A DNA stretch of 64,000 nt. Origin: Chloroflexia bacterium (lineage in GTDB: Bacteria > Chloroflexota > Chloroflexia > DTKN01). The notes below the pieces were generated by a model, which saw only the letters and a list, made by a program, of their open reading frames with translations, had not been told where the DNA came from and searched no databases. Both the position numbers and the translations under genes were made by a program. How positions within the stretch are numbered: the stretch's first letter is position 1; every line of letters begins with the position of its first letter. The DNA is taken from the NCBI GenBank assembly GCA_034433695.1, contig DAOUAK010000038.1:2758-66757 (forward strand). Reading direction: 5' to 3'. Shown here piece after piece: positions 1,519-60,061 of this stretch.

Positions 1519-4413
1519 ATGAGCGGGAAAATCAGGGCGGTCCGTGTTTTGAGTCTCCTTGGGGCAATCGTCCCGCTCCTGAATCTCCTGGGGGCCGGCC
1601 AGGTGACTTCTGGGGCAGCCCGGCCGCCCGCCACCCTCGCCTTCGCAGCCCAGCCCGGCGGGCAACAGGGCCGGACCATCGAGATCCGTGCCGATACCTT
1701 CGGTCTGCCGCTCGCCAACGACGACCTGGCCCACCAGTATAACAAGCCCAGCGTCCGATTGACCCGAGGGGACAGCGCCCGCTTTTCGGTAACGATCGAG
1801 ACGGCGGGGGAATATACCATCGCCTTCGATGCCGCCGTGCCGGAGGAGGTGCTCGTCACTGCCCCGGAGGGTCAACTCCTTCTGGATGGTGCCCTGCCGG
1901 TCGAAGATGCCCGCCGCATCGTCTTCCCGCTTTTTTACCGCAGCCCGGCGGAAGAGTTTCCGCTCGACCGCTACGGCAACGAGACCCTTATCCCCGCAGT
2001 GCGCCTGGCGCGTTGGACCCAGGTCTATCTACGAGATGTCAACCTGAGCCGCAAGTACCCGCTGACCATCCACCTTTCCCAGGGCGAGCACGACTTTGAG
2101 TTTGTCCTGACCCGCGAGATCCTCCTTCTGGGCAGCATCTACCTCCGACCATTTTCGCCGGACATGCCGTATAGCGACTACCTTGCCCGGAAACCTGCCC
2201 AGGACTCTGTCGGGGTGCTGATCGAAATCGAGGCAGAAAGACCAAGTTACAAGAACGATATCTCCATCCGCCCTCTCTATGACCGCAGCCTGGAAGTCAC
2301 GCCCTACGACACCTATCGCCTGCTCCTGAACACCATCGGCGGGGAAAGCTGGCAACGCAGCGGCAGCGCACTCTACTACGAGGTAAAAGTACCGCAGGAC
2401 GGGATGTATCTTATCACCCTGCGGGTCCTCCAAAATACACGCAGTAACTTTGTCGTTTTCCGCCGCCTCACCATCAACGGAACCGTGCCCTTTGATGAGG
2501 CTAACGAAATACCGTTCGGCTATCACCCGGGATGGGAAAACGTCACCCTGCCCTATCGGGTGTACCTGCAACGGGGGACGAACGTCCTGGGGCTGGAGGT
2601 TACCACTTCCCCCTACGATGCCGCCATCAGGAACATCCGTCGCTCCATTGGGGACATCACGGCCCTCTCGCTGGAGGTCAAGCGCCTGACCGGCAACCAG
2701 GTGGACCGCTATCGGGAATGGGAAATTGCCGAATACATCCCCAACATCGAGGAGCGGCTGGATGACATCGCCGCCAGGCTCGCCGCCGACAAGGCCGCGC
2801 TACAGACCTTGAGCGGCGGGCTGAACTCGCAGGAGATCATGAACTACCAGATGGCCCTCGACAACATTCTCGTACTCCGGAACGACCCCAACAAAATCCC
2901 GGTGCGCATGAACCGCCTCTCCGAGGGGCCACAATCGGCGGCCCAACTGCTGGGCAATGTGCTCAGTGCCCTGCAGAAACAGCCGCTTATGCTGGACAAA
3001 ATCTACCTGCACTCGCCCGATGTCACGCCGCCAGAACCGCAGGTCTCGGCCTGGGAATCGGCGAGCGAGGGCATCAAGCGCTTCTTCCACTCCTTCACAC
3101 GCACCCCCTATCAATCCATCGGCGCGAGCGAGGGCGAAATCGAAGTCTGGGTCAACCGTCCCCGGCAGTATGTGGCCCTGATGCAGCAAATGGCCGATCG
3201 GTCTTTTACTCCACGGACGGGCATCGGCGTTGTATTCTCGCTCATGCCCAACGAATCGAAACTGGCCCTGGCCATCGCCGCCGACATCGAACCGGATGTG
3301 GTCCTGGGCCTCAGCACGAACATCCCCTATGAACTCGCCCTGCGCAACGCCCTGTACGATCTGCGCTCCTTTGAGGATTTCGATTCCTTCATCCGCATCT
3401 ATGCCCCCGGTTCGCTCCTGGGCTACATCATCAACGATTCGGTCTATGCCATCCCGGAGACGCAGGATTTCTGGGTGACGTTTTACCGCAAGGATATCCT
3501 GGATTCCCTTGGGCTGTCGGTCCCGCACACCTGGGATGAAGTCATCGCCATCTTGCCCGAACTGCAGCGTTATGGGATGAACTTTTACACCCCACTTTCA
3601 ACCGGCAGCGGCCTCAAGGGTTATCTCATCACGGCTCCTTATATCTGGAATTTCGGCGGCGCGTTATACAGTCCCGACGGCCTGAAGACCGGACTCGGCA
3701 GCGACGAATCCATCACCGCCATCAAATTCATGGCCGAACAATTCACCGTCTACGGGATGCCGCTCACCGCCGTCAGTTTTTACGACAGTTTCCGCAACGG
3801 CGAACTGCCGGTGGGCATCTCCAACGTGGAGACGTACATCAAACTGCGCACTGCCGCGCCCGAAATCGAAGGGCTGTGGGGAATCGACCTCTACCCGGCC
3901 ACCGTCCTGCCGGACGGGAGACAAAACCGTTACGCCACCGGCTCGGCGCAGACCTGCGTCATCCTCGCCGATACCGAAAGGCCGCAGGAAGCATGGGAAT
4001 TCCTGAAGTGGTGGATGTCCACCGAGACCCAGGTGGAGTACGAACGGCAACTCCTGATGAACTATGGCCCGGAATACCTGTGGTACACGGCCAACCTGGA
4101 AGCCTTCCGTTATCTGCCGATTCCCGAGGAGCACAAAGAGGTCATCCTCAAACAGTGGGAATGGCTTCAGGAGCCGGTCAAACTTCCCGGCACGTACATG
4201 CAGGAGCGCGAGTTAAGCAATGCCTGGAACCGGATCGTCTTCGACGGAGTCAACCCACGCGTAGCGATCGACAACGCCATTCTGACGATCAACCGTGAAA
4301 TGGCGCGCAAGATGGAGGAACTCGGTTACACCCGCAACGGCGTGCCGGTACGCGAGATTCGGGTGCCCACCATCGAGACCGTCCGCCGGTGGATGGAGGC
4401 AGCAGAGAAATGA
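1519..4413 (+). CDS. Large secreted protein: ~530-aa unknown N-terminal region fused to a C-terminal family-1 sugar solute-binding-like domain
   Basis: 964-aa ORF with N-terminal hydrophobic signal. The C-terminal ~430 aa resemble ABC sugar SBPs. Directly followed by an overlapping permease gene. Confidence 0.6.
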
Positions 4414-20682: not shown

Positions 20683-22083
20683 CTACAGCTTCACCACCAC
20701 CATACCCCCTGCCGAACGACCCCAGAGTTCGGGCCGGTACATCGGATAGGCCTCGGCCGGCAGGGCGTGGAAGGTGCCGGCCGTCGTCGCCCGCGCCAGG
20801 TAGGTGAAAGTGTGCGGACCGGGGTCGAGTTCGTTGAAGAAGAGCGCCACGGCGTCATCGTACACATCCTTGCGGCTATAGAGGTAGTGGCCGGCCCCCT
20901 CATAAGCCCGGGCGGCGTAACTCGTGGTCGCCAAGCGCTCGTTCAGCCCTTCCAGCCCGGCCGGGAGGGGGTCGTAGAGGATGACGTAGTAGGCCATCTC
21001 CGGGAAGTTCACCGTCAGATGCACCTCCACCAGGTCGCCCACCCGGAGCGGCCCCTCGATCGGCTTCCCGCCGGGCCGGGTGTACGTCCGCTCCACCCGA
21101 ACCCGGCCGGCCGGCCGGATCTCTTCCTCCACGCTATAGAGGCGCAGGACCACGGTGTAGTATAGCCGGCCGTTCCCGCCGTGGAGCAACCGTACCTCGT
21201 TTTCCCCGATCCGGAGGGCCGTGGCGGGCAATACCACCCTCGCCCCCTGTTCTACCTGGGTAAAGGCTCCCTCGGCCACCGTCTGCCCGTTCACATCCAC
21301 CCGGTAGTTCTGCTGGTCCATCTGCATCTGCACGCTCAGCACATAGTCCGATAGCGCCAGCAGGGCATAGGAGGTTTCCTGGGTGGTGTTCCAGGCGTGG
21401 CCCCGACGCTGCCCCATCAGCCAGCGCACGACCTTGGGAATCAGAGGATGGTCCGGGCGGATGTGCACCAGTGCATCCAGGGCCAGTGCCGTCGAGCGTA
21501 CCGAAGAGGACATGGTCTTCTCCCTGTAGTGGCCGTCCTCGATTCCGGTATCCCAGTAGGCCAGGTCGTCCTTCACCACGGCCTTTTCCGCCAACCTGTC
21601 CACCAGCAGGCCGGCCGTGGCATCGTCTCCGGCGGTGTAGAGGGTCAGGGCCAGCGCGGCCTGGCTAAAGGGGTCAAAGTCCTTCACCTCGCCGTTCAGC
21701 ACCCGGGAAGCCAGTACCTGGGCCCGGCCCGGCTCCACGTGGCCGGCCGTAGCCAGAGCAAAGAGGGCATAGGCCTGGGTGCGGACATCCATCGTGTCCA
21801 GATGTTGGCGCAGGTATTCGGCCCCACGGGCGATCACGCCGTCGTCAATCTCAAAGCCGGCCTGTTCGGTCATCGCCAGACCGAAGAGGATGTAGGCCGT
21901 CTGGTAATCGTGGGAAGGATCGTCGAACCACCAGCCCCAGCCGCCGTCCTCGTGCTGGAAGCCGTAGAGTTTCTGCCGGCCGACGTCCACCATCTTGGGC
22001 AGGTCCGCCTCCAGGCGCTCGTTGCGTACCCCCAGGATCCGGAAAGCCCGACCGATGATCGCATTGGGGAGCACACGGCTCAT
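20683..22083 (-). CDS. Alpha-2-macroglobulin family protein, C-terminal part (thioester-domain alpha/alpha toroid plus receptor-binding-like domain)
   Basis: Terpenoid-cyclase-like repeats (GWGWWFDDPSHDYQTAYILFGLA). Begins TEQTMSRV 4 codons after an in-frame TGA that ends the upstream A2M ORF. Confidence 0.7.
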   Translation of the reverse strand: MSRVLPNAIIGRAFRILGVRNERLEADLPKMVDVGRQKLYGFQHEDGGWGWWFDDPSHDYQTAYILFGLAMTEQAGFEIDDGVIARGAEYLRQHLDTMDVRTQAYALFALATAGHVEPGRAQVLASRVLNGEVKDFDPFSQAALALTLYTAGDDATAGLLVDRLAEKAVVKDDLAYWDTGIEDGHYREKTMSSSVRSTALALDALVHIRPDHPLIPKVVRWLMGQRRGHAWNTTQETSYALLALSDYVLSVQMQMDQQNYRVDVNGQTVAEGAFTQVEQGARVVLPATALRIGENEVRLLHGGNGRLYYTVVLRLYSVEEEIRPAGRVRVERTYTRPGGKPIEGPLRVGDLVEVHLTVNFPEMAYYVILYDPLPAGLEGLNERLATTSYAARAYEGAGHYLYSRKDVYDDAVALFFNELDPGPHTFTYLARATTAGTFHALPAEAYPMYRPELWGRSAGGMVVVKL

Positions 22084-22095
22084 CGTCTGTTCCGT

Positions 22096-22098
22096 TCA
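22096..22098 (-). other. In-frame TGA at the predicted thioester-cysteine codon of the A2M gene (candidate Sec recoding site, inactivating mutation or sequencing error)
   Basis: Minus-strand reading is ...GAT TAC CCC TTT GGC TGA ACG GAA CAG ACG ATG..., i.e. DYPFG-stop-TEQTM. Canonical A2M thioester motif is YP(Y/F)G-C-x-E-Q. Confidence 0.7.
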
Positions 22099-25000
22099 GC
22101 CAAAGGGGTAATCGATGAGGTACTCCAGGCCGTCCAGAAGGGCGTTCACCACCGAGGGCGAAAGGCGGATCTCCAGCGTGGTCACCTCGGGAATCGCCTT
22201 CTCCGGCAAGACGATGCGCTCGATGTGTTCGCCCTGGAATTCCCCGGCCCACGTTTCCACCCGGGGCACGGCAAAGGGGCGCACCGGAATCGCGTACTGG
22301 ACGGCATCGCTCAGGCCCCCGCCCCGGGCGTAGGCGGTGACGGTGACGGCGCCCAGGGTGCCGGCTTCCAGGGCCCAATGGAGTGGGGCCGTTTCCCCGG
22401 CGGCCAGGCTTAGCGTCTGGGTAAGCGGGCTATGGAGGGCCAGACCCTGGGGAAGCAGGCCGGCCTGGAGGGATAGAGGACCTTCGCTGTAGTTATGCAA
22501 CGTGGCGGTCAGGGTGAAGGTATCGCCCTGGATGAGGAAGCGGGGGACGGCCGGCCGGATGACCAGCGGCTGGGTGACGGTGAGCGCCACCGTCCCCTCG
22601 CCCAGGCGCGTATCCACGGTGACGGCGCGGGCCAGCAGCCGCCAGCGGGTGAGCGAATCGGGCAGGCGCAACGTCACGACGGCCCGACCTTCGGCATCGG
22701 TCAGGATGCGGGGGTTCCAGTAGGCCGTATCGGGAAAATGGCGGCGCGGGTTGCCCACGTCAATGCCGTCGCCTCCACCGCCCCTCTCCGCCCCACCGAG
22801 TTCCCGCACCGGCTTGAGGGAGTGATAGGTGCGCACCAGGTTCGTCCGGCGGCTGTAGAAAGCCTCGAAGGGGTCCTGTGCCAGGTCCTGGGAAAGGGCG
22901 TAAATGGCCTCATCCACCACGGCCAGGGAAAGTTCGGCCTGCACCGGCCGGCCGGCTACATCGGTTACCTGAATGACGATTTCGGCCTCCTCCCGAGGCG
23001 CGTAGGTCGGGCGCTGCGGGGTAAGGGTCACCCGCAGGCGGCGCTCCTCCGGCGGAACGGCAAGTTCGGTACTGGCGATCAGGAGTTCGGCATCGGGGAT
23101 ACTGGTGTAACTCCAGTGGTCGAGCGGCTGGTTCGTCGGCCGGTAAATCTGCACCGTGACGAAAATGTTGGGGACAAAGTCGGCCTCCACGGGCAGGGTG
23201 ATGGCGGTGACGGTTCCGCTCAACTCCACCGGCTGCATCCGCCGCACCCGACCGCGCTCCAGGGTCAGGAGGGCCGTGCCGGTCACCGGCGAATGCACCA
23301 GAAGCCGGGCCGTCTCGCCCACAGTATAAGAGGATTTGTCGGCGCTGATGCTCAGGCCTCCGCCCTGCCCCCAGTCGACCCAGGGCGTAGCACCGGTGGG
23401 GTCATAGACCCAGATCCAATCCTCCAGTTCCTTTTCCCCCTGCACCAACACCCGGAACCACCCCTGCCGATCCACACGCAGGGGGAGGCGAGCCTGGCCG
23501 GAAGCACCGGTGACGAGTTCTCCCTGGGCCACGGGGACGTATTTCTCTCCATCCCAGTGGTAGATGCCGCCTTGGAGCCGGGCGCCGGCCACTGGCCTTC
23601 CCAGGTAATCGTGCACTACCACCTCCAGAGGAATCTCCTCCCCAGGCGAGTAAATATGGCGTCCCAAGAGCAAGGCGGCACCCTGCGGGTTTCGGTATAC
23701 CTCCACCAGGGCATGGCCGCTGACCGACTGACCGCTTCCGTCCTCCACCGTGGCCTCCAGGTCGAGGCGGGAAAGGTCGGGCGACCACCAGGAGTATTCG
23801 GCTATCCGGGCCGGGATACGCACCACCCAGCGCCCCTGGGCATCGGTAGTGCCGCCATAGTCCCCCTCCCGGTACAATTGGGCCCAGCAGTCGGAGGCAT
23901 CCATCCCGCATTCCCATTCACCGTAGGCCTGCTTGTAGACGGTCAGTTTGACCGGGGCTCCGGTCACAGGCCGGCCGAAATAGTACTGGGCCTCCACGGT
24001 CACCGTGATCGTCTCGCTCAGGAGGTAGCGCCCGCGGTCGGTCGTCACGGTGACCTGATAATCGGGCTTGCGGTACTCTTCCACCTTGAGCGCCTGGCGG
24101 GTAACCTCTTCGCCCACGACCACCTCGACGTTATAGGTGCCCAGCGTTCCACCTTCGGCCAGGGCAAAAGAGGTGTAGGCGGTGCCGAATTCGTTCAAAG
24201 GAAGCACCTGGGTGGCCAGAACGTTATCGCGGGCATCGCGCAGGCGCACGGTGATCGGGGTGCCGGCCGGGGGCAGGGAGTAGAGGGCATCGTCATCGTT
24301 GCGGACGACAGCGCGGACGTGGACCGTCTGGCCGGGCCGGTAGATAGGGCGGTCGGTATAGACATAGACGCGGAAAAGCCGGCCGGTAGGCGGGTTGGTG
24401 AGCCAGCCGCGCCAGGACCACCAGCCGCCCTGGGCATCCCACTCCGGCCCAAAGCCGCAGAGCGTCGTTTCGCCCTCCACCTCTCCCAGGGCGAGGAGCG
24501 GGTCGGTATCCCCCCCTACCGTTATCTCGAAGCGGCCCTGCTCCTCGGTCATACCCTGGCCGTAGAGCCGGCCGGAGCGGTCGTAGAGACGCACCACCAT
24601 GCCAGGGCGGGGCTGACCGGTGGAGATGCGCGTGGCGTACCCGGCCACCTGATGCTGGGCGGTGGTGCCGAGGCCGGTGGAGGCTTCCTTGAGGAGGAGG
24701 GTATAATGGGTCAGCACGACGATCAGGCGGTCGCCGTGGCCGGTGGAGGCTTGGGGGGCCAGGACATAGAGGCCGGGAGGAAGGTCGGCCGGGAGGGTCA
24801 CCTCCCTGTCCGTCTCCTCGGCTCTCCACTGGCGCACGATGGGCAATCCTTCGATGGAGATGACCACCGGGCTCTTGAGGGAGGAGGTATAGTCGGCCAG
24901 GAGGCGTTCCATCGGGAGTTGATAGAGGACAAAGATGGGAGGACAGGAGGCCGAATCCCAGCGCTCGTACTGGATACGGCGGGGGCCGGCGGCATCCATA

Positions 25001-26145
25001 ATCTGAATGTTGGGTCCGTAGCCAAAGTTCACCGCGGTCTGCCGGTAGTCGACCCGAAAGTTCCAGCGGAGCGGCTTCCGCAGGAGCGGGCTACCGTCGG
25101 CAGCACGGGCAGAAGGTTCCAGAAGCACCTGGTAGGTCTCCGAAGAAAGCTCCCCCGAAGGAACAAAGCGCAGGGCGGTTTTCTCCCATTCGAAGGTGCC
25201 GGCGAGGGTAGGGGTGATATGGAAGGCGGCCTCGACGCTGGCGTGGTCGGGTTCCCGGTCGAAGGTGATGCCGATGGTGCTGCAGGGCGAGGCCTTTCCT
25301 TTGGGGAAAACATCCACCACCCGCGAACGAGTGGTAAAGGTCCAGTGCAGCGGTTTCGCCAGGGTCATTATTCCGGCTTCATCCCGTGCCCCGGCATCCA
25401 GGGTGAGGGTATAGGTCGTCTCCACCTCCCAGCCATCTTCCGGCTCCAGAAGCAAGGTTCCTTTCGACCAGGAGAGGCGGTAGGGCGTCGCCGGCTCCAG
25501 GTGCAGGGCCTGTTCGATGGAGCGTGCGTCGACCGGATAGGGGAAGGAGAGAGATAGAGGGGCATCGGGATCGCGCCCCTGGGAGGCCCCGAGAAAGGTG
25601 GCAAAGGGCTGGGTGGTGAAGATGAGGCGAGGCGAGTTCCGGGCGCTGCGCACCTCGAGGATGTAGCGGGTTGCCGGTAGCCAGGCGGGGATGGGGGTCA
25701 GGGCCAGGGAACGTTCGTCCACGATCGTCCGGCGCAGGGGCACGCTCGGCGAGATCACGATCCGCACCGTCCTCGGGTCGATGGGGCGGTCGAAGGTGAG
25801 GACGAGAGAAGCCTGCAAGTGGGATGGGATCGGCCCGGTGCTTGTCAGGGGCGGAGATTTGCCCGGGGCGAAATCCTCCTGGAGGCGTTCCTCCACGAAC
25901 GCCCACCAGCTGATGGCCGGTGGGACGGGGGTAGGGGTAGGGGCCGGCGTGGATGTGGGGGACGGGGTAGACGTCGGGGAGGCGGTTGGGAGTGGAGGAG
26001 GCGGAGCGGCCGTCTCCCAGACGGCCGGCAGGAGCACCAGAAACAGAAGGAGCAGGAAGCCGAGAAACGGAACGGGCGCGATCAGACGGATGGACCCTTT
26101 CATCGTGCACCTCCTGGACAACTCCGGTGAGACCTTTGCCCTCAT
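22096..26145 (-). CDS. Alpha-2-macroglobulin family protein, N-terminal part (signal peptide, Ig-like and MG domains, bait region, A2M domain)
   Basis: Signal peptide and Pro/Thr linker. MG2-like motifs (YVYTDRPIYRPGQTVHVRAVV, KPDYQVTVTTDRGRY). Ends ...LEYLIDYPFG immediately before the TGA. CAGGAGGTG RBS before ATG at 26145. Confidence 0.8.
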   Translation of the reverse strand: MRAKVSPELSRRCTMKGSIRLIAPVPFLGFLLLLFLVLLPAVWETAAPPPPLPTASPTSTPSPTSTPAPTPTPVPPAISWWAFVEERLQEDFAPGKSPPLTSTGPIPSHLQASLVLTFDRPIDPRTVRIVISPSVPLRRTIVDERSLALTPIPAWLPATRYILEVRSARNSPRLIFTTQPFATFLGASQGRDPDAPLSLSFPYPVDARSIEQALHLEPATPYRLSWSKGTLLLEPEDGWEVETTYTLTLDAGARDEAGIMTLAKPLHWTFTTRSRVVDVFPKGKASPCSTIGITFDREPDHASVEAAFHITPTLAGTFEWEKTALRFVPSGELSSETYQVLLEPSARAADGSPLLRKPLRWNFRVDYRQTAVNFGYGPNIQIMDAAGPRRIQYERWDSASCPPIFVLYQLPMERLLADYTSSLKSPVVISIEGLPIVRQWRAEETDREVTLPADLPPGLYVLAPQASTGHGDRLIVVLTHYTLLLKEASTGLGTTAQHQVAGYATRISTGQPRPGMVVRLYDRSGRLYGQGMTEEQGRFEITVGGDTDPLLALGEVEGETTLCGFGPEWDAQGGWWSWRGWLTNPPTGRLFRVYVYTDRPIYRPGQTVHVRAVVRNDDDALYSLPPAGTPITVRLRDARDNVLATQVLPLNEFGTAYTSFALAEGGTLGTYNVEVVVGEEVTRQALKVEEYRKPDYQVTVTTDRGRYLLSETITVTVEAQYYFGRPVTGAPVKLTVYKQAYGEWECGMDASDCWAQLYREGDYGGTTDAQGRWVVRIPARIAEYSWWSPDLSRLDLEATVEDGSGQSVSGHALVEVYRNPQGAALLLGRHIYSPGEEIPLEVVVHDYLGRPVAGARLQGGIYHWDGEKYVPVAQGELVTGASGQARLPLRVDRQGWFRVLVQGEKELEDWIWVYDPTGATPWVDWGQGGGLSISADKSSYTVGETARLLVHSPVTGTALLTLERGRVRRMQPVELSGTVTAITLPVEADFVPNIFVTVQIYRPTNQPLDHWSYTSIPDAELLIASTELAVPPEERRLRVTLTPQRPTYAPREEAEIVIQVTDVAGRPVQAELSLAVVDEAIYALSQDLAQDPFEAFYSRRTNLVRTYHSLKPVRELGGAERGGGGDGIDVGNPRRHFPDTAYWNPRILTDAEGRAVVTLRLPDSLTRWRLLARAVTVDTRLGEGTVALTVTQPLVIRPAVPRFLIQGDTFTLTATLHNYSEGPLSLQAGLLPQGLALHSPLTQTLSLAAGETAPLHWALEAGTLGAVTVTAYARGGGLSDAVQYAIPVRPFAVPRVETWAGEFQGEHIERIVLPEKAIPEVTTLEIRLSPSVVNALLDGLEYLIDYPFG

Positions 26146-26240: not shown

Positions 26241-27182
26241 TCAAGAGGATGGCCAGCGCCAGGGTTCGTCCAGCAGGTGCACCTCCACCGTCTCGATGCC
26301 GTCCAGGCCTCGCAGGGCCCGGCGCACCTGCTCGGTGAGGTAGCCGGCCAGGGGGCAGGTAGGGCTGGTGAGCACCATATCTACCTCGGCCCGTCTTCCC
26401 TCCACCCGCACGTCGCGGATCAGTCCCATCTCCACCAAATTGCCTCCGACCTCGGGGTCGGGGATGCCGCGCAGGGCCTCCCAGGCCCGGGCCCGGACCT
26501 CGTCGGGCGGGGCAGGAGGAGAGAGGGGCGAGACACCGACCAGGGCCTCTTCCAGGGCACGTACCCGCTCTTCCAGCCGGCTGTAACGCTCCAGCACCTG
26601 GCTGAGGGCCTGCATCACCGGGTCGGGCAGGCGGCCGTGCTCCAGGTAGCCGGTGAGGTCGGCCGGTTCCCGGGGACCGGCCAGCCGGGCCGGCACCCCC
26701 ACCACCGTGGCCCCGGCCGGCACCGACCGCACCACCACCGAACCGGCCCCGATGCGGGCATCGTCCCCCACGGTGATCGGCCCCAGGAGGATGGCCCCGG
26801 CCCCGATGACCACCCGGTTGCCCACCGTCGGATGACGCTTGGTCTTCTGCAGGCTGGTCCCGCCCAGGACGACCCCCTGGTAGAGGAGCACATCGTCGCC
26901 CACCTCGGCCGTCTCTCCGATCACCACCCCCATGCCGTGGTCAATGAAGCAGCGCCGGCCAATCTTGGCTCCGGGGTGGATCTCCACGCCGGTCAGGAAG
27001 CGGTTGAAATGGGAAAGCAGTCGCCCCAGGAATTTGAAGCCGTGCCGCCAGAGGAAATGGGCCAGACGGTGCAACCAGATGGCATGGAGGCCCGGGTAGG
27101 TAAAGAGGACCTCCCAGACCGTGCGGGCGGCGGGGTCTTTGGCAAAGGCGGTGGCGATGTCCTCGCGCAGCATACGGAACAT
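26241..27182 (-). CDS. cysE: Serine O-acetyltransferase fused to a C-terminal DUF59/MIP18 (SufT-like Fe-S assembly) domain
   Basis: N-terminal SAT helical region and hexapeptide repeats ([44 protein letters not shown]). C-terminal ~90 aa carry [17 protein letters not shown]...[13 protein letters not shown], the DUF59 hallmark. Confidence 0.75.
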
Positions 27183-27198
27183 TTCGCGCTCCTGGGGA

Positions 27199-28158
27199 CT
27201 AATCCCCGAAGAGGTCGGTGCTCAGGTAGCGCTCCCCGGTATCGGGGAGGACGACGACGATGAGGGCCCCCGCGTTTTCCGGCCGGCCGGCCACCTGAAG
27301 GGCGGCATGTGCCGCCGCTCCGGAGGAGATGCCGCAGAGGATGCCCTCCTCGCGGGCCAGGCGGCGGGCCATGGCGATGGCTTCCTCGTCCTGGACCCGG
27401 ATAATCTCATCCACCAGGTCCAGGCGCAACACCTCGGGGATGAAGCCGGCCCCGATGCCCTGAATTCGGTGGGAACCCCGTTGGCCGCCCGAAAGGACCG
27501 GAGAGCGGGCCGGCTCGACGGCGATGGCCCGGAAGGAGGGTTTGCGGGCCTTGATGACCTCGGCCACGCCGGTGATCGTCCCTCCCGTGCCCACGCCGGC
27601 CACCAGGATGTCCACCTGGCCGTCGGTATCGCGCCAGATCTCCTCGGCGGTGGTGCGGCGGTGGACGGCGGGATTGGCCGGGTTGCGGAACTGCTGGGGG
27701 ATAAAGTAACGCGGGTCCTGGGCGGCCAGTTCCTCGGCCCGGCGCACGGCCCCGGGCATCCCTTCATCCCCCGGCGTCAGGATGAGTTCGGCCCCTAGGG
27801 CCCGAAGCAGCCGGCGGCGCTCCAGGCTCATCGTCTCCGGCATCGTCAGCACCAGGCGGTAGCCGCGGGCGGCGCAGACCATGGCCAGGGCGATGCCGGT
27901 GTTGCCGCTGGTCGGCTCCAGGATGATCGTGTCGGGTCCGATGAGGCCGGCCTGCTCGGCAGCCTCGATCATGCTCAACCCGATGCGATCCTTCACACTG
28001 GAACAGGGGTTGAACGACTCCAACTTGGCCAGAACGGTGGCCCCAAGCCCCCGGGCGACACGGTTCAGGCGCACCAAGGGGGTGTTGCCGATCGTCTCGG
28101 TGATATCCCTGTAGATCCGACCCATCGCTTTCCTCCGGAAGGTCCTCCAATCTGCCAA
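27199..28158 (-). CDS. cysK: Cysteine synthase A (O-acetylserine sulfhydrylase)
   Basis: PLP-enzyme motifs [20 protein letters not shown] and [10 protein letters not shown]. Confidence 0.9.
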
Positions 28159-28180
28159 TCCACTCCTCGAGGAAGGAGTA

Positions 28181-29968
28181 CTAATCCACCGTCAGCGTCT
28201 TGCTCAGATTGCGGGGAAAATCCGGGTCATAGCCCCGGGCCACGCTCAGGCGGTAGGCCAGGAGTTGCAGCGGAAGTACGGCCAGGAGGGGATTGAAGAG
28301 CGGGCCGGCCGAAGGCAGCACGATCAGGTCGTGGGCATTGGAGCGCAAGCGGGGGTCCTCTTCCCCGATGGCGATGGCCCGTCCGCCCCGACAGACCATC
28401 TCGTTGATGCCGCTGACCAGGAGGGGCACGTCTTCCGGGCCGGCCACAAAGAGCACGGCATAATCGTCCTGCACTGCCGAGAGGGGACCGTGCTTGAACT
28501 CGGTGGAAAGCATCCCCTCGCAGTGGGCGTAGGTAATCTCTTTCATCTTCAAGGCCCCCTCCAGGGCGATGGGATAGGTCAGGCCGTAGCCCAGACAATA
28601 GAGGTCATCCCGTTTCTCCAGGATCGGTTCCAGGGGGGCGATCTGCGGTTCCACCCGGGCAATCGTCTCTTCGAGCAGGTCGGGGAGGGCGTCCAGTTCC
28701 CCGGTGGAATGGCCGCCCAGACGCAGGGCGAGGAAAAGGAAGGCCACCGCCTGGTTCATAAAGGTCTTGGTGGCCGGCACGCTGATCTCATAGCCGCAGG
28801 CCAGGGGAAGGTAGCATTCGCTTTCGTGGCGCAGGGTGGAGCCGAGCACGTTGACCAGGGCCAGCCGGCCCATCCCCCGCTTCCGAGCCGCCTCCAGGGC
28901 GTTCAGCACGTCCTTGGTCTCCCCACTCTGGCTGACAAAGACCCCCACATCCTCCGGCCCTATGGCGTTGCCATACTGGGCGATGAATTGGGGGGCCAGG
29001 ATGGGGACGGCCGGCCGTCTGGCCAGCCGACCCAGATAGATGGCCCCCAGGAGACAGGCATGGTAACTGCTGCCGCAGCCGATCAGGTAGAGGTGATCGG
29101 CCCGGGCAATCCGCTCCACCATCGGTGCTACAAAGGGCGAGGCCTGGAGGAGGTGGAGGAGTTCCCGTACCCGCACCGGCTGCTCGTGAATTTCCTTCAG
29201 CATAAAGTGGGGATACCCCTCCTTCGTAGCCGCCTCGATGCTCTCGGTCACCCATTCCGGCTCCCGTTCCACCCGGCTGCCGTCCTCCACCTGGCGCAGT
29301 TCCACCCGATCGGGCCACAGGATAACGATCTCGCCGTCCTGCACCCGCAAGATGCGGCGGGTCAACGGCAGGATGGAGGGAAGGTCGGAGGAAACGCAGG
29401 TGGCCCAATCGGCCAGGCCGACCGCCAGGCTGGAGCCTTTCTTCAGAGCGTAGAGGCAGTCCTCGCCCATCCGGCCGATGACAAAGGCATAATCCCCGGC
29501 CAGGTCGTTATAGGCGCGGCGGATGGCCTCCACCATGTCATAGCCCCGATTCACATAGCGCTCCACGGCGTGGACGCACGACTCGCCGTCGTTGGTGGAG
29601 CGGACGATCATCCCCTCGGCCATGAATTCCAGGCGCAGTTCGACGTTGTTGACCACGTTGCCGTTGTGGGCACCGACCATATCGCCATCCGAGTCCAGGT
29701 GAGGCTGGGCGTTGGCCTGGGAGGGAGCGCCGAAGGTGGCCCAGCGGAGTTGCAGGATGCCCCGCCGACCGGCCATCTCGGCAAAGTTCAGCCGTTCGGC
29801 CACCTCGTCCACCCGCCCCACGTCCTTGCGGAGGTCAATGCCCTCGTCATCCAGGGTGGCACAGCCGACCGAATCATAGCCCCGGTAGGAGAGGCGCCGG
29901 CCGGCCTCGATGAGGATCGGCCCTAACGTCCGCCGATGATCGGTGACAATGCCAAAGATGCCGCACAT
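28181..29968 (-). CDS. glmS: Glutamine--fructose-6-phosphate aminotransferase (isomerising)
   Basis: N-terminal MCGIFGIV (Ntn glutaminase Cys2). Two SIS domains and C-terminal ...KTLTVD. AAGGAGGG RBS. Confidence 0.95.
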
Positions 29969-30166: not shown

Positions 30167-32227
30167 ATGCAGAAGCAACCTTCACCCATTTTCCGCCCGA
30201 TCGCTACCCTGGGGAACGTCCTCCGCCGGGAGGTCCACCTCCTGGGACAGACCCTGGGCGATCCTTTCCTGGGCCTTTTGCTTCTGGGAACGGTTCTCCT
30301 GACCTTTCTGGCCGGCCAGGCCTTTCCCCCTTTCCGATTGGACGTCGGCGAGCAGCCGGATGAGGTCTACCTGAGCGGTTTTTACGAGCCGGAGAAGGCG
30401 GCCGGGGAGTCTTTCCGCTGGAGCACGGGAGAGGGTCGGCTGGACATTCCGGCCTCGGGCATGGTCCCCCTTCGCCTCGACCTGCGCCTCTCTGCCCCCA
30501 GGCCGGCCGAAGTTCCCCCACCACGCCTGAGCCTGGCCGGGAACGGCCACCTCCTCCTGGAGACAACCGTTGCCCCCGCTCCCCGGATTTACTCCCTTCT
30601 TCTTCCGGCGGAGGCCTCTTCCTTGGGAAATCTGGAGTTACGGTGGCGCAGCGAAACGTTCTCCCCGGGTGAAAGCGATCCTCGGGTATTGGGATTTGCG
30701 CTAGATCACCTGGAGATATGGCGGGTGGGCCGGCCGCTCGTCCTCCTCCCTCCCGAAGTCTACCTCTGTTCCCTTGCCACGGTCTTCTTGGCCGTGCTTC
30801 TGGCGCGGCGGCTGGGCTGGCCACGCCCGGGTGCCCTGGGCGTGGGGTTCGTCTGCGCCCTGGCGCTGGCCGCGGCCCTGGCCTGGGCCCGCCCGCTCCT
30901 GGCACCGGGCCTGCCTTTCCTCCCCCTGGCCCTGGCCTGCTCCTGGCTCTTCCACGCCCTCCTCCGGCGGCCGTTCGAGCGTTGCTTCGTCCGCCTGGGG
31001 GGCGGACTGCCCCTTTTCGCTGAGCGCGCCCTCTGGAGCACGGCGCTTTTCTTTCTGGCCGTGCGTCTGGCCGGCTGCCTTCACCCGGCGATGGAAACAT
31101 GGGACCTCTGCTTCCACTTCCACCGCCTTCAGGATGTGGCCCGGGGCGAACCTTTCTTCACCATCACCTCCGGGGAATGGCGGGGCTTGCAGACTCTCTA
31201 CCTGCCCTCGTTCTACGTCGTCCTGGCCCCCCTCTGGGCCGTCTTCGGCGGCCGGCTGGTGCCGCTCCAGGTCGCCGCCGTCCTTCTGGATACCTCGTCT
31301 GCCCTTCTGGTAGCCTACCTGTCCTGCCGGTTGCTGGGGAGGAAGGCGACCTGGCCGGCCGCCTTCCTTTACCTGACCATGCCGCAGTCCTCCATCATCT
31401 TCTCCTGGGGCATCGTAGCCAACATCTTCGGTCAGTGGCTTTTCTTGCTCCTGCTGGCCTTTTTCTTTTCCCCGGCCGGGAGGCTATCCCGCCGGCCGGC
31501 CTGGCTTTTGGCCGCGGGACTCCTGACGCTGGTGTGGCTTTCCCACCCCGGCACGGTCCTTCTGACGGCCGTCCTGCTGGGCGGCCTGCTTTTCCTGGCC
31601 CGGTTTTTCCCCGAGGGCCAAGGCCTTCCCCGGCCGGCCGTGGGGCGCTGGGTTGGGGTGGCGTTGGGGGCGCTGGCGCTTGTTACGGCGCTCTACTACA
31701 GCCACTTTGCCCCGACGATGTGGGCGGCGCTCCAGGAGATGGGGCAGGGAAGCAATCTGGAGCAGCCCCGCCATGGGGGAATCCTCATCCGTGGGCCGGT
31801 TACAGACCCCGACCTGGGCCTGCGGGCGGTCGAGGTCCAGGGTTGGGGACAGGCCATCCTGGCCGGAGCGGAAGAAGTGGCCGCCGAGGCCCGGGCTTAC
31901 TACGATGTCTGGCCACTTCTCCTGGCTCTGGCCGCGTTGCCCGGCCTGGCCTGGCAGCGGCGAGTTCCTGCCGTCCGGCTGCTGGGGCTGGCCTTTACAA
32001 CGGCCCTGTTTTTTGCTATGATTGGGTTGGTCTGGAATCTGTATGTGCGGTACATGTACTTTCTGCTGCCCTTTGTGGCGCTGGGAGGGGCCTGGTGGCC
32101 GGCCCACTGGAGCCGGCGTGGCCTGGCCGGCCGGTTGACGGCGCTCCTTACGGGGCTTTATTTGCTCTTCTTGGGGCTATCTTTCTGGGCCGGCCATGTG
32201 CTCTATTACTCGGCCGGTTGCCGTTGA
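30167..32227 (+). CDS. Polytopic membrane protein, putative GT-C-fold glycosyltransferase (PMT/ArnT-like) with an extracytoplasmic beta-rich insert
   Basis: 686 aa. One TM, then a ~130-aa soluble segment, then >10 hydrophobic helices. Sits directly upstream of two Dpm1-like GT2 genes. Confidence 0.45.
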
Positions 32228-34947: not shown

Positions 34948-35661
34948 ATGATGCTAGCCGAGATGACCTGGAAAGAGGTAGCCGTCTATCTGGAAAACGA
35001 TGACCGCATCATCGTGCCGGTAGGAAGCACGGAACAGCACGGCCCACGGGCGGTCATCGGAACCGACTATCTGGTGCCGGCCGGAATCGCCCGCGAGGTC
35101 GGCCGGCGCAGCGGGGTGCTGGTGGCTCCGCCCCTCTGCTACGGCATGTCCCTTCACCACATGGCCTTCCCGGGGACGATTTCCCTGCGTCCCAGCACCC
35201 TCCTCCAGGTGACCTGTGACATCCTGGCTTCGCTGGCCCGCCACGGCTTTCGACGCATTCTCCTCCTGAACGGCCACGGCGGCAACACGCCGGCCCTGCT
35301 CGCCGGCATCGCCGAAGCTAACGACCTTCACCCCGAACTGGGGATCAAACTCCTCTCCTGGTGGGAACTTGCTGCCGTCAAGGCCGTCCTGGATGAGGCC
35401 TTTGGGGAAAAGGAGGACGGTCACGGCACGCCCGGGGAGACCTCGCTGGTGATGGCCCTTTGCCCGGGAATCGTCTCCGACCGGCCGGTTGAGGTCCGGC
35501 CGGTGGTGCGGCCGGCGGTTTGGCCCAACGCCCGGGTCTGGGCCGAGCACTACCCGGACGGCTCGGGCGGCGCGGACGTCAATCTGGCCTCAGAGGAGTG
35601 GGGGCGACGCCTCCTGGAGGCTGCCGTGGCCGCAGTGCTGGACGAACTGGAACGCTGGTAA
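34948..35661 (+). CDS. Creatininase-family amidohydrolase
   Basis: VPVGSTEQHGPRAVIGTDYLV and LNGHGGN motifs, typical of the creatinine amidohydrolase/ArfB/MftE family. Confidence 0.75.
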   Translation: MMLAEMTWKEVAVYLENDDRIIVPVGSTEQHGPRAVIGTDYLVPAGIAREVGRRSGVLVAPPLCYGMSLHHMAFPGTISLRPSTLLQVTCDILASLARHGFRRILLLNGHGGNTPALLAGIAEANDLHPELGIKLLSWWELAAVKAVLDEAFGEKEDGHGTPGETSLVMALCPGIVSDRPVEVRPVVRPAVWPNARVWAEHYPDGSGGADVNLASEEWGRRLLEAAVAAVLDELERW

Positions 35662-35671
35662 GGGGTGCCCG

Positions 35672-36946
35672 ATGGATGTACATGCCGTTCGCGCCGATTT
35701 TCCCATCCTCCAACGCACCGTCCACGGCAAGCCGCTCATCTACCTGGATAACGCGGCCACCACCCAGCGGCCGCGCCAGGTCCTGGAGACGCTGGTAACC
35801 TTCTACAGCCACTACAACGCCAACATCCACCGCTCTCCCCACCTTTTGGGCCAGGAAGCCACCCTGCTTTATGCGCAGGCCCACGAAAACGTGGCCCGCT
35901 TCATCGGGGCGGAGGACGAGGGGGAGGTGATCTTTGTCCGCAACACCACCGAAGCCGTCAACCTGGTGGCAAACTCGCTCCTGCGCCGCGAAAGCGGGCC
36001 GCTGCGGTTGCTGCCGGGCGATGAGGTGCTCATCACCGTCATGGAGCACCATTCCAACCTGGTGCCCTGGCAGGCCCTTTCCCAGGAGGCCGGCCTGACC
36101 TTGCGCGTGGTAGACATCCGGGAAGACGGCACCCTAGACCTGGCCGACCTGGAGGCCCAATTGGGGCCGCGCACCCGGCTGGTCTGCTGTGCCCACGTCT
36201 CCAACGTCCTGGGGACGATCAACCCGGTAGCGGAGATTGCCCGTCGGGTCCACGCATCCGGTGCCCTCCTTCTGGTGGATGGGGCGCAGTCGGTGCCCCA
36301 CATGCCGGTGAACGTGCGGGAACTGGAGTGCGACTTCCTGACCTTTTCCGGGCACAAGATGCTGGCCCCCTTCGGCATCGGCGTCCTCTACGGCCGGCGG
36401 GCCCTCCTAGAACGGATGGCTCCCTTCCTCTACGGCGGGGATATGATCGCCGATGTCACGCTGGAGCATTCCACCTGGAACGAGTTGCCCTGGAAGTTCG
36501 AGGCCGGAACGGCCAATGTGGCCGGCGGCATCGCCCTGGGCGGAGCCGTGGACCTCTGGAGCGGCCGGAAACTGGTGGGGGCCGTGGATTACCTCCAGGA
36601 GATCGGCATGGAGCAGGTCCAGGCTCACGAGCGGGAGTTGCTGGCCCAACTCCTGCAGGGACTCCAGGCTATCCCCCGCGTCCGCGTCTACGGCCCCCTG
36701 GAGCCGGAACGGCGGGGGGCAGCCGTCTCCTTCACGGTGGAGGGCAGCAACCCTCACCTGATCGCCCAGTTTCTGGACGACGAGGGCATCGCCGTGCGGG
36801 CCGGCGGCCATTGCGCCCACCCGTTGGCCCGGCGGTTGGGCGTGGCGGGAACGGTGCGCGTCAGCCCTTATATCTACAACACTTCCGAGGAAATCGAGCG
36901 CTTCCTGGATGTTCTGGAGGGAATTGTGAGGAGGCAGGCGCTGTGA
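35672..36946 (+). CDS. sufS: Cysteine desulfurase, SufS-like (class V aminotransferase)
   Basis: FPILQRTVHGKPLIYLDNAATTQ, PLP-Lys region FSGHKMLAPFGIGVLYGR and active-site RAGGHCA. Confidence 0.85.
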   Translation: MDVHAVRADFPILQRTVHGKPLIYLDNAATTQRPRQVLETLVTFYSHYNANIHRSPHLLGQEATLLYAQAHENVARFIGAEDEGEVIFVRNTTEAVNLVANSLLRRESGPLRLLPGDEVLITVMEHHSNLVPWQALSQEAGLTLRVVDIREDGTLDLADLEAQLGPRTRLVCCAHVSNVLGTINPVAEIARRVHASGALLLVDGAQSVPHMPVNVRELECDFLTFSGHKMLAPFGIGVLYGRRALLERMAPFLYGGDMIADVTLEHSTWNELPWKFEAGTANVAGGIALGGAVDLWSGRKLVGAVDYLQEIGMEQVQAHERELLAQLLQGLQAIPRVRVYGPLEPERRGAAVSFTVEGSNPHLIAQFLDDEGIAVRAGGHCAHPLARRLGVAGTVRVSPYIYNTSEEIERFLDVLEGIVRRQAL

Positions 36947-45896: not shown

Positions 45897-46843
45897 ATTT
45901 TCCCCAAAGACGGCGTGCTCGGCGCCGTTCCAAGAGGCGCTCCGGCCCGACGGCCGGGAAGCGCCTGACGTTGTTCGACCCGCACGGCCAGGTTTTTGGC
46001 CAGGAGGATTTGTTCGGCATAGAGACGAAAGCCCAGACGGCGGGCCACTTCCAGAAGTTCGCCCTGGTAAGAGCGCAGGACCAGGTAGACGGGGGGAGAA
46101 GCCCGTCGCAACCCCCAGACGAGCACATCTGGAGCACCTTGACGAAAGGCCGGCTCCAGAAGCACTTCCAGACGGGTGCCCCCTGTTCCCCGGGCGCAAC
46201 GCAGGTACGCCCGGACGCGGCCCTGTTCCGGCCAGATCCAGGCCTCCTCCCCCGGCCCGGCCCGCCAAAAGGCTGGATCGCGGCCCTCCACCTGTTGAAC
46301 GATGGGGGGAGTCAGGCCGGCATATAGCCCCTGCACCGCTGCCAGCATGTCGGGCTGGAGGGGTTGGGGTCTCGAGCGCGGGTGGACTTCTGGTCGGCTG
46401 CCCTCCTCCCTGAGCAGGATCATCTCCTGGGCAAAGGGGGCAAACCCGGCCCGCTGGAAGAGTTCCAGGTACTCCTCCTCCGGCAGACGGGCCAGCAGGC
46501 GCACTTGTCCCCGCCGGCCGGCCTCCATCCCCAGGCCGTGCAAGAGTTCTTCCCAGGCGTCCTCGACCGCCTCCTCGGCGGTCCACAGCCCCAGGTAGCC
46601 GACCTCCCAGGCCCCTTTTTGCCGGCCTTCCCGGGCCTGGGCGCAGGCCAGAACCTTTCCTCCTTCCCGGCAGAGCAGGGTGTACGACGGCTTCCCCAGG
46701 TGGAGGCAGGAACTGAGCAGGCCGCGCCAGGGATGGTAGGAAAAGACCCGATGCTGCACCAGGTCCAGGGATAAGGATACCTGGGGGGGAATGCCCAGCG
46801 TCACCAGGTCCAGCAAGGTGGCCGGCCGAATCTGCCGTTCCAT
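45893..46843 (-). CDS. Hypothetical protein
   Basis: 316-aa ORF in operon position between pdxT and the R3H ATPase, with start overlapping the pdxT stop. No recognised motif. Could be a GC-driven artefact in part. Confidence 0.4.
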
Positions 46844-46847
46844 CCTC

Positions 46848-47423
46848 CTACCCCGTCATCTCCAGAAAATAGCGGTGAAACCGCTCGTCTTCGGTCAGTT
46901 CGGGGTGAAAGGCCGTCCCCAGAAGTCGGCCTTGTTGCACGGCCACCACCCGTCCGTCCTCCAGGCGGGCCAGGACCTCCACCTCCGCTCCCCACTCCTG
47001 CACATAGGGGGCGCGGATGAAGACTCCCCGGAAGGGTGGCGGACCCAGCCGTTCCACCTCCAGGTCGGTTTCGAAACTATCCAACTGCCGGCCGAACCCG
47101 TTGCGCACCACGACGACATCCAGAAGGCCCAGGAGGGGCTGGTGGGGAACCCCACCCAGGGCCGCGCGGGCCAGGAGGATCAACCCGGCGCAGGTGCCCC
47201 AGATGGGTTTCCCCTCCCGGGCCAGGGAGAGGATGGCTTCGTCCAGGCGGTAGGCCACCGCCAATTTGCCGATGGTCGTGCTCTCCCCGCCCGGAAGGAT
47301 CAGGCCGTCCAGCCCCTCCAGGTGCTCCGGCAAACGGACTTCCCGGGTCTCTACCCCGATGCGGCGGAGCATGGCGATATGCTCCTGAAAATCTCCCTGA
47401 AGGGCCAGGACACCGATTCGCAT
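46848..47423 (-). CDS. pdxT: Pyridoxal 5'-phosphate synthase glutaminase subunit
   Basis: [12 protein letters not shown]...[11 protein letters not shown]...catalytic Cys in GTCAG. Class I glutamine amidotransferase. Confidence 0.9.
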
Positions 47424-47444
47424 ACCTTGCCTCCGTGCCGGCTT

Positions 47445-48332: not shown

Positions 48333-48404
48333 TCACCTCCTCGCGCACCGTTGCGCTTGACCCTGACATCCCTGTCGTGCCGTCCGGCTCTACCGGACAT
48401 TTCT

Positions 48405-48433
48405 ATTGTACTACACTCCCATCCGACCTGCAA
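48405..48433 (-). promoter_or_regulatory. Putative promoter TTGCAG-N17-TACAAT for pdxST
   Basis: Reverse complement of ctgcaa(48428-33)...attgta(48405-10). Divergent from the rpsA promoter. Confidence 0.4.
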
Positions 48434-48438
48434 CTGGC

Positions 48439-48467: not shown

Positions 48468-48531
48468 AAGAAGTAGCAGGACCTTTCCACCCGGAAAGGG
48501 TCCTGAATCCGATGACCTTGAGGAGCGGGGT

Positions 48532-60012: not shown

Positions 60013-60061
60013 CCCCAGATACCGGCCCCAGGGCCGTTTTTCCTAAAGATGCCCATTGGGG

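Follow-up and report, generated by a model that had tools for sequence, protein, structure and literature searches.

The window analysed here, a 64-kb stretch of DNA, carries on its minus strand a gene for an alpha-2-macroglobulin (A2M); the strand was absent from the initial annotation. Read through an internal UGA, the complete gene spans positions 20683..26103 (-), as judged from its translation, ribosome-binding site, Pfam architecture and the N-termini of its homologues (MKGSIRL). The upstream open reading frame (26145..22096 (-), 1349 codons) ends in LEYLIDYPFG-TGA, and the same frame resumes after the TGA as TEQT-MSRVLPNA and continues for 470 further codons to a TAG at 20685-20683. This TGA is the only internal stop in the 1820-codon frame, which contains no frameshifts, and GC3 is 0.81 on its upstream and 0.84 on its downstream side. 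The longest open reading frame begins at 26145; the ATG at 26103 is taken as the likely true start because it is preceded, 6 nt upstream, by the Shine-Dalgarno sequence AGGAGG (26110..26115 (-), read from the sequence) and because the homologues also begin with MKGSIRL. Depending on the start chosen, the gene has ~1806-1820 codons; the ATG at 26103 gives ~1806 residues and places the recoded position at residue 1336. The gene is flanked by a GH3 gene on one side and by hexapeptide-transferase, cysK-like and glmS genes on the other, and a scan for promoters and terminators around it returned nothing above background. Current pipelines annotate it as two ORFs, an "MG2 domain-containing protein" and a TED fragment.

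The encoded protein has a complete A2M architecture, with Pfam matches to Big_5, MG2, MG3, the bait-region domain A2M_BRD, A2M, the thioester domain (TED; TED_complement) and bMG10. All of the domains from MG2 to bMG10, the multi-domain feature of type I bacterial A2Ms, score above the Pfam cut-offs. At the N-terminus, a hydrophobic segment, LIAPVPFLGFLLLLFLVLLPAV, which probably serves as a membrane anchor or export signal, is followed by a Pro/Thr/Ser-rich linker (together 25900..26085 (-); translation and TRF), part of which is formed by an 18-nt tandem repeat (25922-25980 (-); TRF). The MG2 domain lies at 24118..24372 (-) (PF01835, E = 2.1e-27) and the bait-region domain at 22894..23355 (-) (PF07703, E = 4.4e-22). 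The TED occupies approximately 21200..22160 (-), according to Pfam TED_complement and the alignment with the TED of the E. coli A2M, ECAM (YfhM), and contains the UGA near its N-terminal end. It is followed by the C-terminal macroglobulin domain (bMG10/CTMG, 20728..21099 (-); PF17973, E = 4.7e-27), which in known A2Ms shields the thioester (PMC4498604).

The UGA (22096..22098 (-)) stands at the position of the thioester cysteine, as indicated by the translation, the ECAM alignment and the homologues. In a phmmer search of the PDB, 'dypfgCteqt' aligned with 'aypygCleqt' of ECAM (4ziu, 5a42, 4rtd; E about 1e-23), so that the TGA corresponds to Cys1187 of the ECAM CLEQ motif. In ECAM, Cys1187 and Gln1190 form the thioester (PMC4498604). 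The counterpart here is U-T-E-Q (22087..22098 (-)), with the Gln codon CAG at 22089-22087 encoding the acyl partner. The x-E-Q part of the CXEQ motif is present and invariant and its C position is occupied by UGA, so the literal cysteine is lacking and the motif is complete only if UGA encodes selenocysteine (Sec). The initial annotation had described a gene split by a single in-frame TGA at YPFG-[TGA]-TEQT, exactly at the thioester Cys codon and intact on both sides. Each part of this description is borne out, respectively by the translation (TGA at 22098-22096 (-)), by the alignment to Cys1187, and by the complete domain architecture, the sole internal stop and the AGGAGG before the ATG.

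Conservation of the UGA and a SECIS-like hairpin

Alignment of orthologues at the thioester codon, a check that the initial annotation had proposed, found TGA in ~29 distinct homologous sequences (Sec-type) from independent MAGs and metagenomes and TGC/TGT in 31 related genomes or loci (Cys-type), while TAA or TAG occurred in none; the recurrence of TGA in so many distinct homologues is therefore far beyond chance. The TGA is carried by assemblies from independent sources (NCBI MAGs, JGI, ENA and Logan), with proteins of 57% to 90% identity, and also by several lineages that are more distant; examples of carriers are JASFBA01, JBMFNL01, DAOTVY01, JBHIET01, GCA_975962985.1 and GCA_041082245.1. 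Searches without bias towards TGA recovered it in 4/4 GTDB MAGs and in all four truncated proteins that were looked up, and a protein search returned at least 16 homologues (60-90% identity) that end in YPFG and at least 15 fragments that begin with MSRVLPNA. When metagenomes were searched with the pattern YP[YF]G-TGA-xEQTM, all 23 matches were A2M genes, in which the open frame reaches up to 1463 codons before the TGA and 470-511 codons beyond it; these genes cover a GC range of 40-65% and at least five lineages, and three further lineage members with TGA were added to the set later. An in-frame UGA aligned with the Cys of homologues, with a conserved reading frame on both sides, is a feature of bacterial selenoprotein genes and is seen in this gene.

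The codons downstream of the UGA carry a further constraint. In the clade of the window (18 sequences), a scan of the 64 four- or six-fold-degenerate columns within 100 codons either side of the TGA found only four consecutive codons with zero synonymous diversity, codons +6 to +9 (AGC CGT GTG CTC), which lie 19-30 nt after the UGA. Cys-type genes have CGG/CGC, GCN (Ala) and CTG at those codons. From the zero-diversity codons, the fold and the positions known from E. coli fdhF, we propose a SECIS core at 22068..22084 (-), nt 15-31 with the U of the UGA as nt 1. It comprises a G15-C31 pair, an A16/U17 bulge, a stem of four base pairs (G18-C30, A19-U29, G20-C28 and C21-G27) and the loop C22 G23 U24 G25 U26 (CGUGU), with a folding energy of -3.8 kcal/mol (z = -1.98). 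The hairpin begins 11-14 nt past the UGA, in agreement with the fdhF SECIS and the bSECIS model. U17 lies unpaired on the 5' side of the stem and G23-U24 belong to the apical loop, the same places at which these nucleotides define the fdhF element. Unlike in fdhF, the stem in the main clade is just 4 bp plus the possible G15-C31 pair, the 5-nt loop is CGUGU rather than GGUC, and no extended lower stem is conserved.

A hairpin located 17-21 nt after the UGA, with a stem of at least 4 bp and a 3-7 nt loop matching.?G[GU], is present in 25/26 Sec-type and 0/29 Cys-type sequences, counts to which a Fisher test was applied with no correction for phylogeny. Other lineages carry hairpins of their own, GGGCAA-GGUC-UUGCCC (-10.1 kcal/mol), GGCAGG-GUU-CCUGCC (-10.0 kcal/mol) and GCAG-GUUU-CUGC, and the loop GGUC of one lineage is identical to that of fdhF. 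Within each lineage the hairpin nucleotides are invariant, so that the main-clade hairpin offers no column-wise covariation, and across lineages the hairpins are offset by 1-3 nt; it is the occurrence of different hairpins at the same distance that supports the pairing. The bSECIS model specifies an apical loop of 3-9 nt, a stem of at least 4 bp, a G in the first two loop positions and a distance of 16-37 nt from the UGA (PMC13188914), and the geometry in the window (4-bp stem, loop CGUGU, spacing of 18 nt) agrees with it. The model also sets a free-energy cut-off of -7.5 kcal/mol or lower, which the L045/55 and L053/65 lineages reach (-10 kcal/mol) and the clade of the window, at -3.8 kcal/mol, does not. 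Tools that apply this cut-off would probably miss the main-clade element, because so short a SECIS falls under the energy threshold.

Folding of the region downstream of the UGA, also suggested in the initial annotation, told little by itself when applied to the whole 81 nt, which folded no better than shuffled sequence (z = -0.41), and an Rfam scan of the window at gathering thresholds gave no matches. A longer hairpin, G6..C31 with the loop AUGAGC, was set aside, as its 5' wobble positions (nt 9, 12 and 15) vary freely, its loop is separated from the UGA by just 12 nt and the codons of zero diversity match the short hairpin instead.

Decoding of the UGA

Taken together, these observations indicate that the UGA is most likely read as selenocysteine, and we hold with considerable confidence that the gene encodes a full-length, membrane-anchored, extracytoplasmic, type-I-like A2M with Sec at this codon. 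Selenocysteine was among the options raised in the initial annotation, and it finds support in the Cys/TGA pairs, in TGA as the only stop at this position, in the conserved E, Q and T codons that follow and in SECIS-like hairpins confined to Sec-type genes. Within the A2M family, the Sec trait probably arose or disappeared on several occasions, as in other selenoprotein families with Cys homologues. A reassignment of the genetic code is rejected, as TGA ends ~17/37 ordinary genes of the window.

An unlikely alternative is that of a conserved split gene, in which translation would stop at the UGA and restart at the AUG four codons on, the two polypeptides forming a thioester-less, type II-like A2M. 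An ATG does lie four codons past the TGA, with GGAG/GGAA 6-7 nt before it as a possible weak Shine-Dalgarno sequence; gene callers annotate two ORFs everywhere; and bacterial A2Ms of type II lack a thioester and still trap proteases (PMC5764988). However, both the ATG and the GGAG come from the universally conserved EQTM motif and occur equally in Cys-type genes. The codons between the TGA and this ATG are moreover kept as coding sequence: every Sec-type sequence encodes E and Q here, by GAA or GAG and by CAG or CAA, the T codon is likewise kept, and x-E-Q-T shows synonymous or x-position changes only, which is unexpected in an untranslated spacer. Such an arrangement would also need the break to fall at the exact reactive Cys codon in at least five lineages and never to drift to TAA or TAG, and it would leave a conserved hairpin with SECIS geometry inside the supposed second ORF.

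We consider it very unlikely that the UGA is instead decoded by SelB-independent read-through or another form of recoding (by a near-cognate Trp or Cys tRNA or a suppressor tRNA), in which the hairpin would promote incorporation of a standard amino acid. The small size of the main-clade hairpin would fit such a mechanism, as would the gene content of the loci: searches of the 64-kb window and of ~0.8 Mb of other loci revealed no selA, selB, selD or tRNA-Sec. ARAGORN (the window and 27 loci) returned tRNA-Leu only, SelA, SelB and SelD were missing from Pfam scans of ~40 ORFs of the window, and tblastn of all loci with E. coli SelA, SelB and SelD queries gave no matches. Yet a residue other than Cys would abolish the ester, while strong selection acts on the partner Gln and the remainder of the TED, and if Cys were needed, TGC/TGT is one mutation away and is used by relatives. 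Furthermore, the loops carry G[G/U] at a SelB-type distance, in one lineage as GGUC exactly as in fdhF.

A pseudogene created by a TGC/TGT-to-TGA nonsense mutation is highly improbable. TGA is one substitution from either Cys codon, and the window taken alone would allow such a mutation, but ~29 distinct sequences share the TGA, at identities as low as 57% and lower, and the 1820 codons hold no other stop or frameshift. Purifying selection is stronger on the ~470-codon downstream frame (dN/dS of 0.14-0.17) than on the upstream part (0.23-0.28), and the downstream GC3 is 0.84, so the recent decay entertained in the initial annotation is refuted by the downstream selection together with the recurrence of the codon in independent assemblies. 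The sequencing or assembly error it also listed, for which speaks only that a single base is involved, has a negligible probability and is refuted by the same codon in independent NCBI MAG, JGI, ENA and Logan assemblies.

On one Sec-type contig we observed a second gene with a TGA at a Cys that is conserved in 115/120 homologues; the hairpin that follows it has a related loop, CGUGCU. This second candidate Sec gene may lend indirect support to the presence of Sec machinery in the organism that carries it.

Proposed mechanism and comparison with known systems

For selenocysteine decoding, we propose a series of steps. SelB, in complex with GTP and Sec-tRNA(Sec), would bind the small hairpin through the loop CGUGU, with G23/U24 and the bulged U17 acting as in E. 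coli fdhF, and deliver Sec to the ribosome. The selenolate of Sec1336 may then attack the side-chain amide of Gln1339 in U-T-E-Q and form an internal gamma-glutamyl selenoester, a step of which we are less certain. The C-terminal MG domain would shield the selenoester until the bait region is cleaved by a protease, and the selenoester, once exposed, would acylate a lysine of that protease; covalent trapping after bait cleavage, a feature of type I bacterial A2Ms, is predicted here. Selenoesters are faster acyl donors than thioesters, and for this reason the trap would be the more reactive. We lean, with some reserve, towards a natural intramolecular Sec-Gln selenoester that substitutes for the thioester and arose several times, in environmental Chloroflexota as well as in other phyla; its chemistry is extrapolated, since to our knowledge no natural protein selenoester has been described.

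The closest characterised relatives are the type I bacterial A2Ms ECAM/YfhM of E. coli (PDB 4ziu, 4ziq, 5a42, 4rtd) and SaA2M of Salmonella (4u48), which share the MG, bait-region, TED and CTMG architecture. ECAM is alignable over ~620 residues (E about 1e-23), the PDB matches to ECAM and SaA2M lie at E about 1e-22, and the YP[YF]G-x-x-E-Q-T motif and an N-terminal membrane anchor are common to all. The A2M of the window differs from both in the UGA for the reactive Cys, an extra N-terminal Big_5 region, the PT-rich linker, a hydrophobic anchor instead of a lipobox, its Chloroflexota MAG hosts and the absence of an adjacent pbpC (PBP1c), as no transglycosylase or transpeptidase domain was found within the 64-kb window. 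Adjacency to pbpC is frequent, not universal, for type I bacterial A2M genes (PMC5764988). The eukaryotic thioester proteins (human A2M, complement C3/C4, insect TEP1 and CD109) have a homologous TED and CXEQ chemistry and gave weaker PDB matches; unlike the A2M of the window, all of them use Cys, and a literature search returned no Sec form.

The analysis points to the Sec-containing A2M as an unlisted selenoprotein family. A 2026 catalogue of 119 prokaryotic selenoprotein families (PMC13188914) lists neither A2M nor thioester proteins, no NCBIfam model matched, and a literature search found no paper linking selenocysteine with a bacterial A2M or thioester protein. As in the known prokaryotic families, one Sec would take the place of the catalytic Cys, the family tree mixes Sec with Cys forms and the SECIS lies within the coding region. 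Most of the catalogued families are redox proteins with UxxC or CxxU, whereas the Sec of the A2M would be an acyl carrier, bound as an intramolecular ester within a ~195-kDa secreted protein. If this is true, the A2M would provide the first case of a selenoester warhead in a protein. It would also be the first selenoprotein whose selenium, instead of taking part in redox catalysis, acts as an acyl donor kept in store within a protease trap outside the cytoplasm. Nearly all selenoproteins known to us use Sec for redox chemistry, and Sec at the A2M thioester position would extend selenium biology to acyl transfer. Synthetic selenoesters are valued for very fast ligation (PMC9314092), and a Sec-containing A2M would constitute a natural test of the effect of replacing sulphur by selenium on the reactivity and stability of the complement/A2M warhead.

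The in-frame TGA of the alpha-2-macroglobulin gene

The alpha-2-macroglobulin (A2M) gene lies on the minus strand of the window, where the part before the TGA (26145..22096) spans 1349 codons and ends ...LEYLIDYPFG-TGA. The TGA (22098-22096) stands between YPFG and TEQT, and the unchanged frame continues as T-E-Q-T-M-S-R-V... for 470 codons up to the final stop TAG (20685-20683). It is the sole interruption across 1820 codons. The initial annotation of a TGA at the thioester Cys codon, for which selenocysteine (Sec) recoding, a pseudogene or a sequencing error had been offered, is confirmed. The start is probably the ATG at 26103, which follows AGGAGG at a distance of six nucleotides; since this ATG has a strong AGGAGG and is equivalent to the MKGSIRL start of the homologs, the first 14 codons of the longest frame (start 26145) are probably not translated. 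Counted from this ATG, the putatively recoded residue falls near position 1336 in a protein of about 1806 residues. Pfam identifies a complete alpha-2-macroglobulin (Big_5, MG2, MG3, bait-region domain, A2M, TED, bMG10), and the last 620 residues align to E. coli ECAM/YfhM and Salmonella A2M (phmmer against PDB, E about 1e-22), with the TGA on the Cys of YPYG-C-LEQT. As the ECAM thioester is Cys1187-Gln1190 (PMC4498604), the TGA position corresponds to Cys1187. Its N-terminal anchor is joined to its first Ig-like domain by a linker rich in Pro, Thr and Ser (TPSPTSTP...), which is encoded by an 18-nt imperfect tandem repeat of 3.2 copies (25922-25980).

Searching proteins with a query across the stop gave at least 16 homologs of 60-90% identity, all terminating at ...YPFG, and at least 15 fragments, all starting at MSRVLPNA; homologs further away, at 52% identity or below, read YP[YF]G-C-[VT]-EQ. 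A scan at the protein level with one genome for each species gave 37 loci, in which the codon is TGA in four MAGs (Chloroflexia PO_10, KM4338-10 and H111_92; Anaerolineae b2.sp2_bin.30), TGC or TGT in 31 loci, and TAA or TAG in none. All four further truncated proteins found by exact sequence look-up have TGA. A DNA pattern encoding YP[YF]G-TGA-x-E-Q-T-M matched 23 metagenome contigs (GC 40% to 65%), all 23 of them carrying A2M genes whose frame runs without a stop over as many as 1463 codons ahead of the TGA and over 470-511 codons behind it. In a rough NJ tree, these TGA-bearing (Sec-type) sequences fall into five or more lineages, with Cys-type genes placed among them, and additional members recovered for two divergent Sec-type lineages also have TGA.

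A split protein, in which translation breaks at the UGA and restarts at the downstream ATG, was considered and judged unlikely. The four codons from the TGA to the next ATG always read x-E-Q-T, with synonymous variation (GAA/GAG, CAG/CAA, ACG/ACC) and with x being T, V or A as in CXEQ proteins, a pattern that an untranslated spacer would not show. The ATG and its preceding GGAG-like sequence belong to the universal EQTM motif and are equally present in Cys-type genes, and are therefore no evidence of a restart site. A repeated break exactly at the reactive residue is simply explained by Cys/Sec exchange, but is left unexplained by a domain split. The pseudogene reading is refuted, as the TGA recurs in homologs and the downstream frame is open and the more constrained part, with dN/dS between the window and its relatives of 0.14-0.17 after the TGA and 0.23-0.28 before it. 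Sequencing error is refuted by the same TGA across MAGs and metagenome contigs. About 17 of 37 ordinary window genes terminate in TGA; therefore the genetic code is standard.

A SECIS-like hairpin downstream of the UGA

In the window's clade (18 sequences compared), the 100 codons flanking the TGA on each side include 64 columns with four- or six-fold degeneracy. Their synonymous codon diversity has a mean of 0.47 and drops to zero only at four consecutive codons, +6 to +9 (AGC CGT GTG CTC); the codons just before the TGA (TAY CCN TTY GGY) and past the invariant block (CCN AAY GCN) vary freely. Cys-type homologs have AGC CGG/CGC/AAG GCN CTG at this stretch, and Sec-type genes have therefore exchanged an Ala for Val, with two unusual bases now fixed at wobble positions. 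With the U of UGA as 1, the block forms a stem (G18-C30, A19-U29, G20-C28, C21-G27) and a loop (C22-G23-U24-G25-U26), folding at -3.8 kcal/mol (z = -1.98); an A16/U17 bulge may be closed by G15-C31. The essential upper stem-loop of the E. coli fdhF SECIS, whose sequence we confirmed in 5413 genomes, comprises nt 15-31, where U17 bulges out and the loop contains G23-U24 (PMC8659212). The A2M element shares U17, G23 and U24 at equal positions and, by analogy, would work like a minimal fdhF-type SECIS. It agrees with the bSECIS model (PMC13188914) in loop size, stem length, spacing (16-37 nt) and a G at loop position 1 or 2, but is weaker than its energy cut-off of -7.5 kcal/mol.

Other lineages carry, at the same distance as the window's clade, GGGCAA-GGUC-UUGCCC (-10.1 kcal/mol, loop identical to fdhF), GGCAGG-GUU-CCUGCC (-10.0 kcal/mol) or GCAG-GUUU-CUGC, and in one lineage a GUCG loop on a stem of 9 bp lies 33 nt downstream. 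Each hairpin is invariant inside its lineage though adjacent wobble positions change. By a single criterion for all sequences, a hairpin located 17-21 nt past the codon with a stem of 4 bp or more and a 3-7 nt loop that fits.?G[GU], the element is present in 25 of the 26 distinct sequences of Sec type and in none of the 29 of Cys type. These sequences are related, so that the Fisher p-value overstates their independence, although the hairpins comprise at least four unrelated sequences. One Sec-type locus, L041 (TGA at 163; region 151-180), nests among the Cys-type loci L011 and L016 in the NJ tree, and its core AGC CGT GTG CTC is identical to that of the main Sec clade, which suggests convergence on one SelB-binding solution or segment recombination.

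Proposed selenoester chemistry and novelty

The UGA at the Cys position, the open frame downstream and the SECIS-like hairpin are all conserved, in support of the Sec reading first proposed, and we consider it very probable that the UGA is recoded as Sec. Insertion would be SelB-dependent. The Sec could then form a gamma-glutamyl selenoester with Gln, analogous to the Cys-Gln thioester, a reading towards which we lean slightly and which is supported by Gln, Glu and the shielding CTMG domain all being strictly retained. Bait cleavage would release the selenoester, which would acylate the attacking protease. In chemical ligation, selenoesters donate acyl groups markedly faster (PMC9314092), so a trap of higher reactivity than the thioester is plausible by analogy.

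The window protein is homologous to type I bacterial A2Ms and would work alike, but its gene has the UGA, lacks a neighbouring pbpC and belongs to another host phylum. No A2M or thioester protein is among the 119 prokaryotic selenoprotein families catalogued in May 2026 (PMC13188914), and an A2M selenoprotein is mentioned neither in the deep-Sep paper and its supplements nor in the main text of the BSepDB paper. No NCBIfam model matches the Sec-type A2M, its pieces are annotated in the source records as 'MG2 domain-containing protein' or 'YfaS', and full-text literature searches found no link between selenocysteine and bacterial A2M. The Sec-type A2M would be a new variant both among selenoproteins and among A2Ms, and Sec at the thioester position would carry a chemically novel implication.

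Proposed Sec decoding and gene neighbourhood

Neither the window nor the fetched loci contain tRNA-Sec, selA, selB or selD. Indirect support for Sec decoding in the carrier comes from a second TGA gene, about 1.1 kb downstream of the Sec-type A2M on two contigs probably assembled from one organism, L039 (2937-4010, plus strand; TGA at 3663-3665) and L042 (3561-2491). This ferredoxin-like gene (357 aa) has two Fer4 motifs, an N-terminal wHTH-like region and an in-frame TGA in YI-[C/TGA]-NCCTCCCG, a position that is Cys in 115 of the best 120 homologs. A 7-bp hairpin 23 nt after the UGA has the loop CGUGCU, which starts like the A2M loop CGUGU; the gene is a candidate for a further selenoprotein.

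Three genes immediately precede the A2M gene on its strand (26241-29968, minus): a hexapeptide acyltransferase fused to an FeS_assembly_P domain, a cysK-like PLP enzyme and glmS. At 9 kb from A2M, an aminotransferase of class V (cysteine desulfurase/selenocysteine-lyase type) occupies 35489-36946 on the plus strand, and a PALP gene (L065 2774-3691) lies near another Sec-type A2M; a link of these neighbours to sulfur or selenium supply is speculative. In the L043 lineage, a MagC-domain gene (L068 5869-6684) is immediately upstream of a Sec-type A2M. MagC is an operon partner of type II A2M in Pseudomonas, which hints that the type I/type II operon distinction is blurred in such Sec-type lineages.

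Positions 1-20420 hold a glycan-utilisation cluster with two solute-binding proteins, four ABC permease genes, a LacI regulator, a DUF5696 protein, two PF10091 'glucoamylase' paralogs, and GH35/42-like and GH3 enzymes. The long high-GC3 frames at 30167-32227, 46791-48476, 52457-54277, 60056-60892, 61961-62917 and 62896-64000 gave no Pfam hit at E <= 1e-5; a multi-pass membrane protein is encoded by the first. The dips in AT skew at 30-32 kb and 40-42 kb fall on membrane-protein genes.
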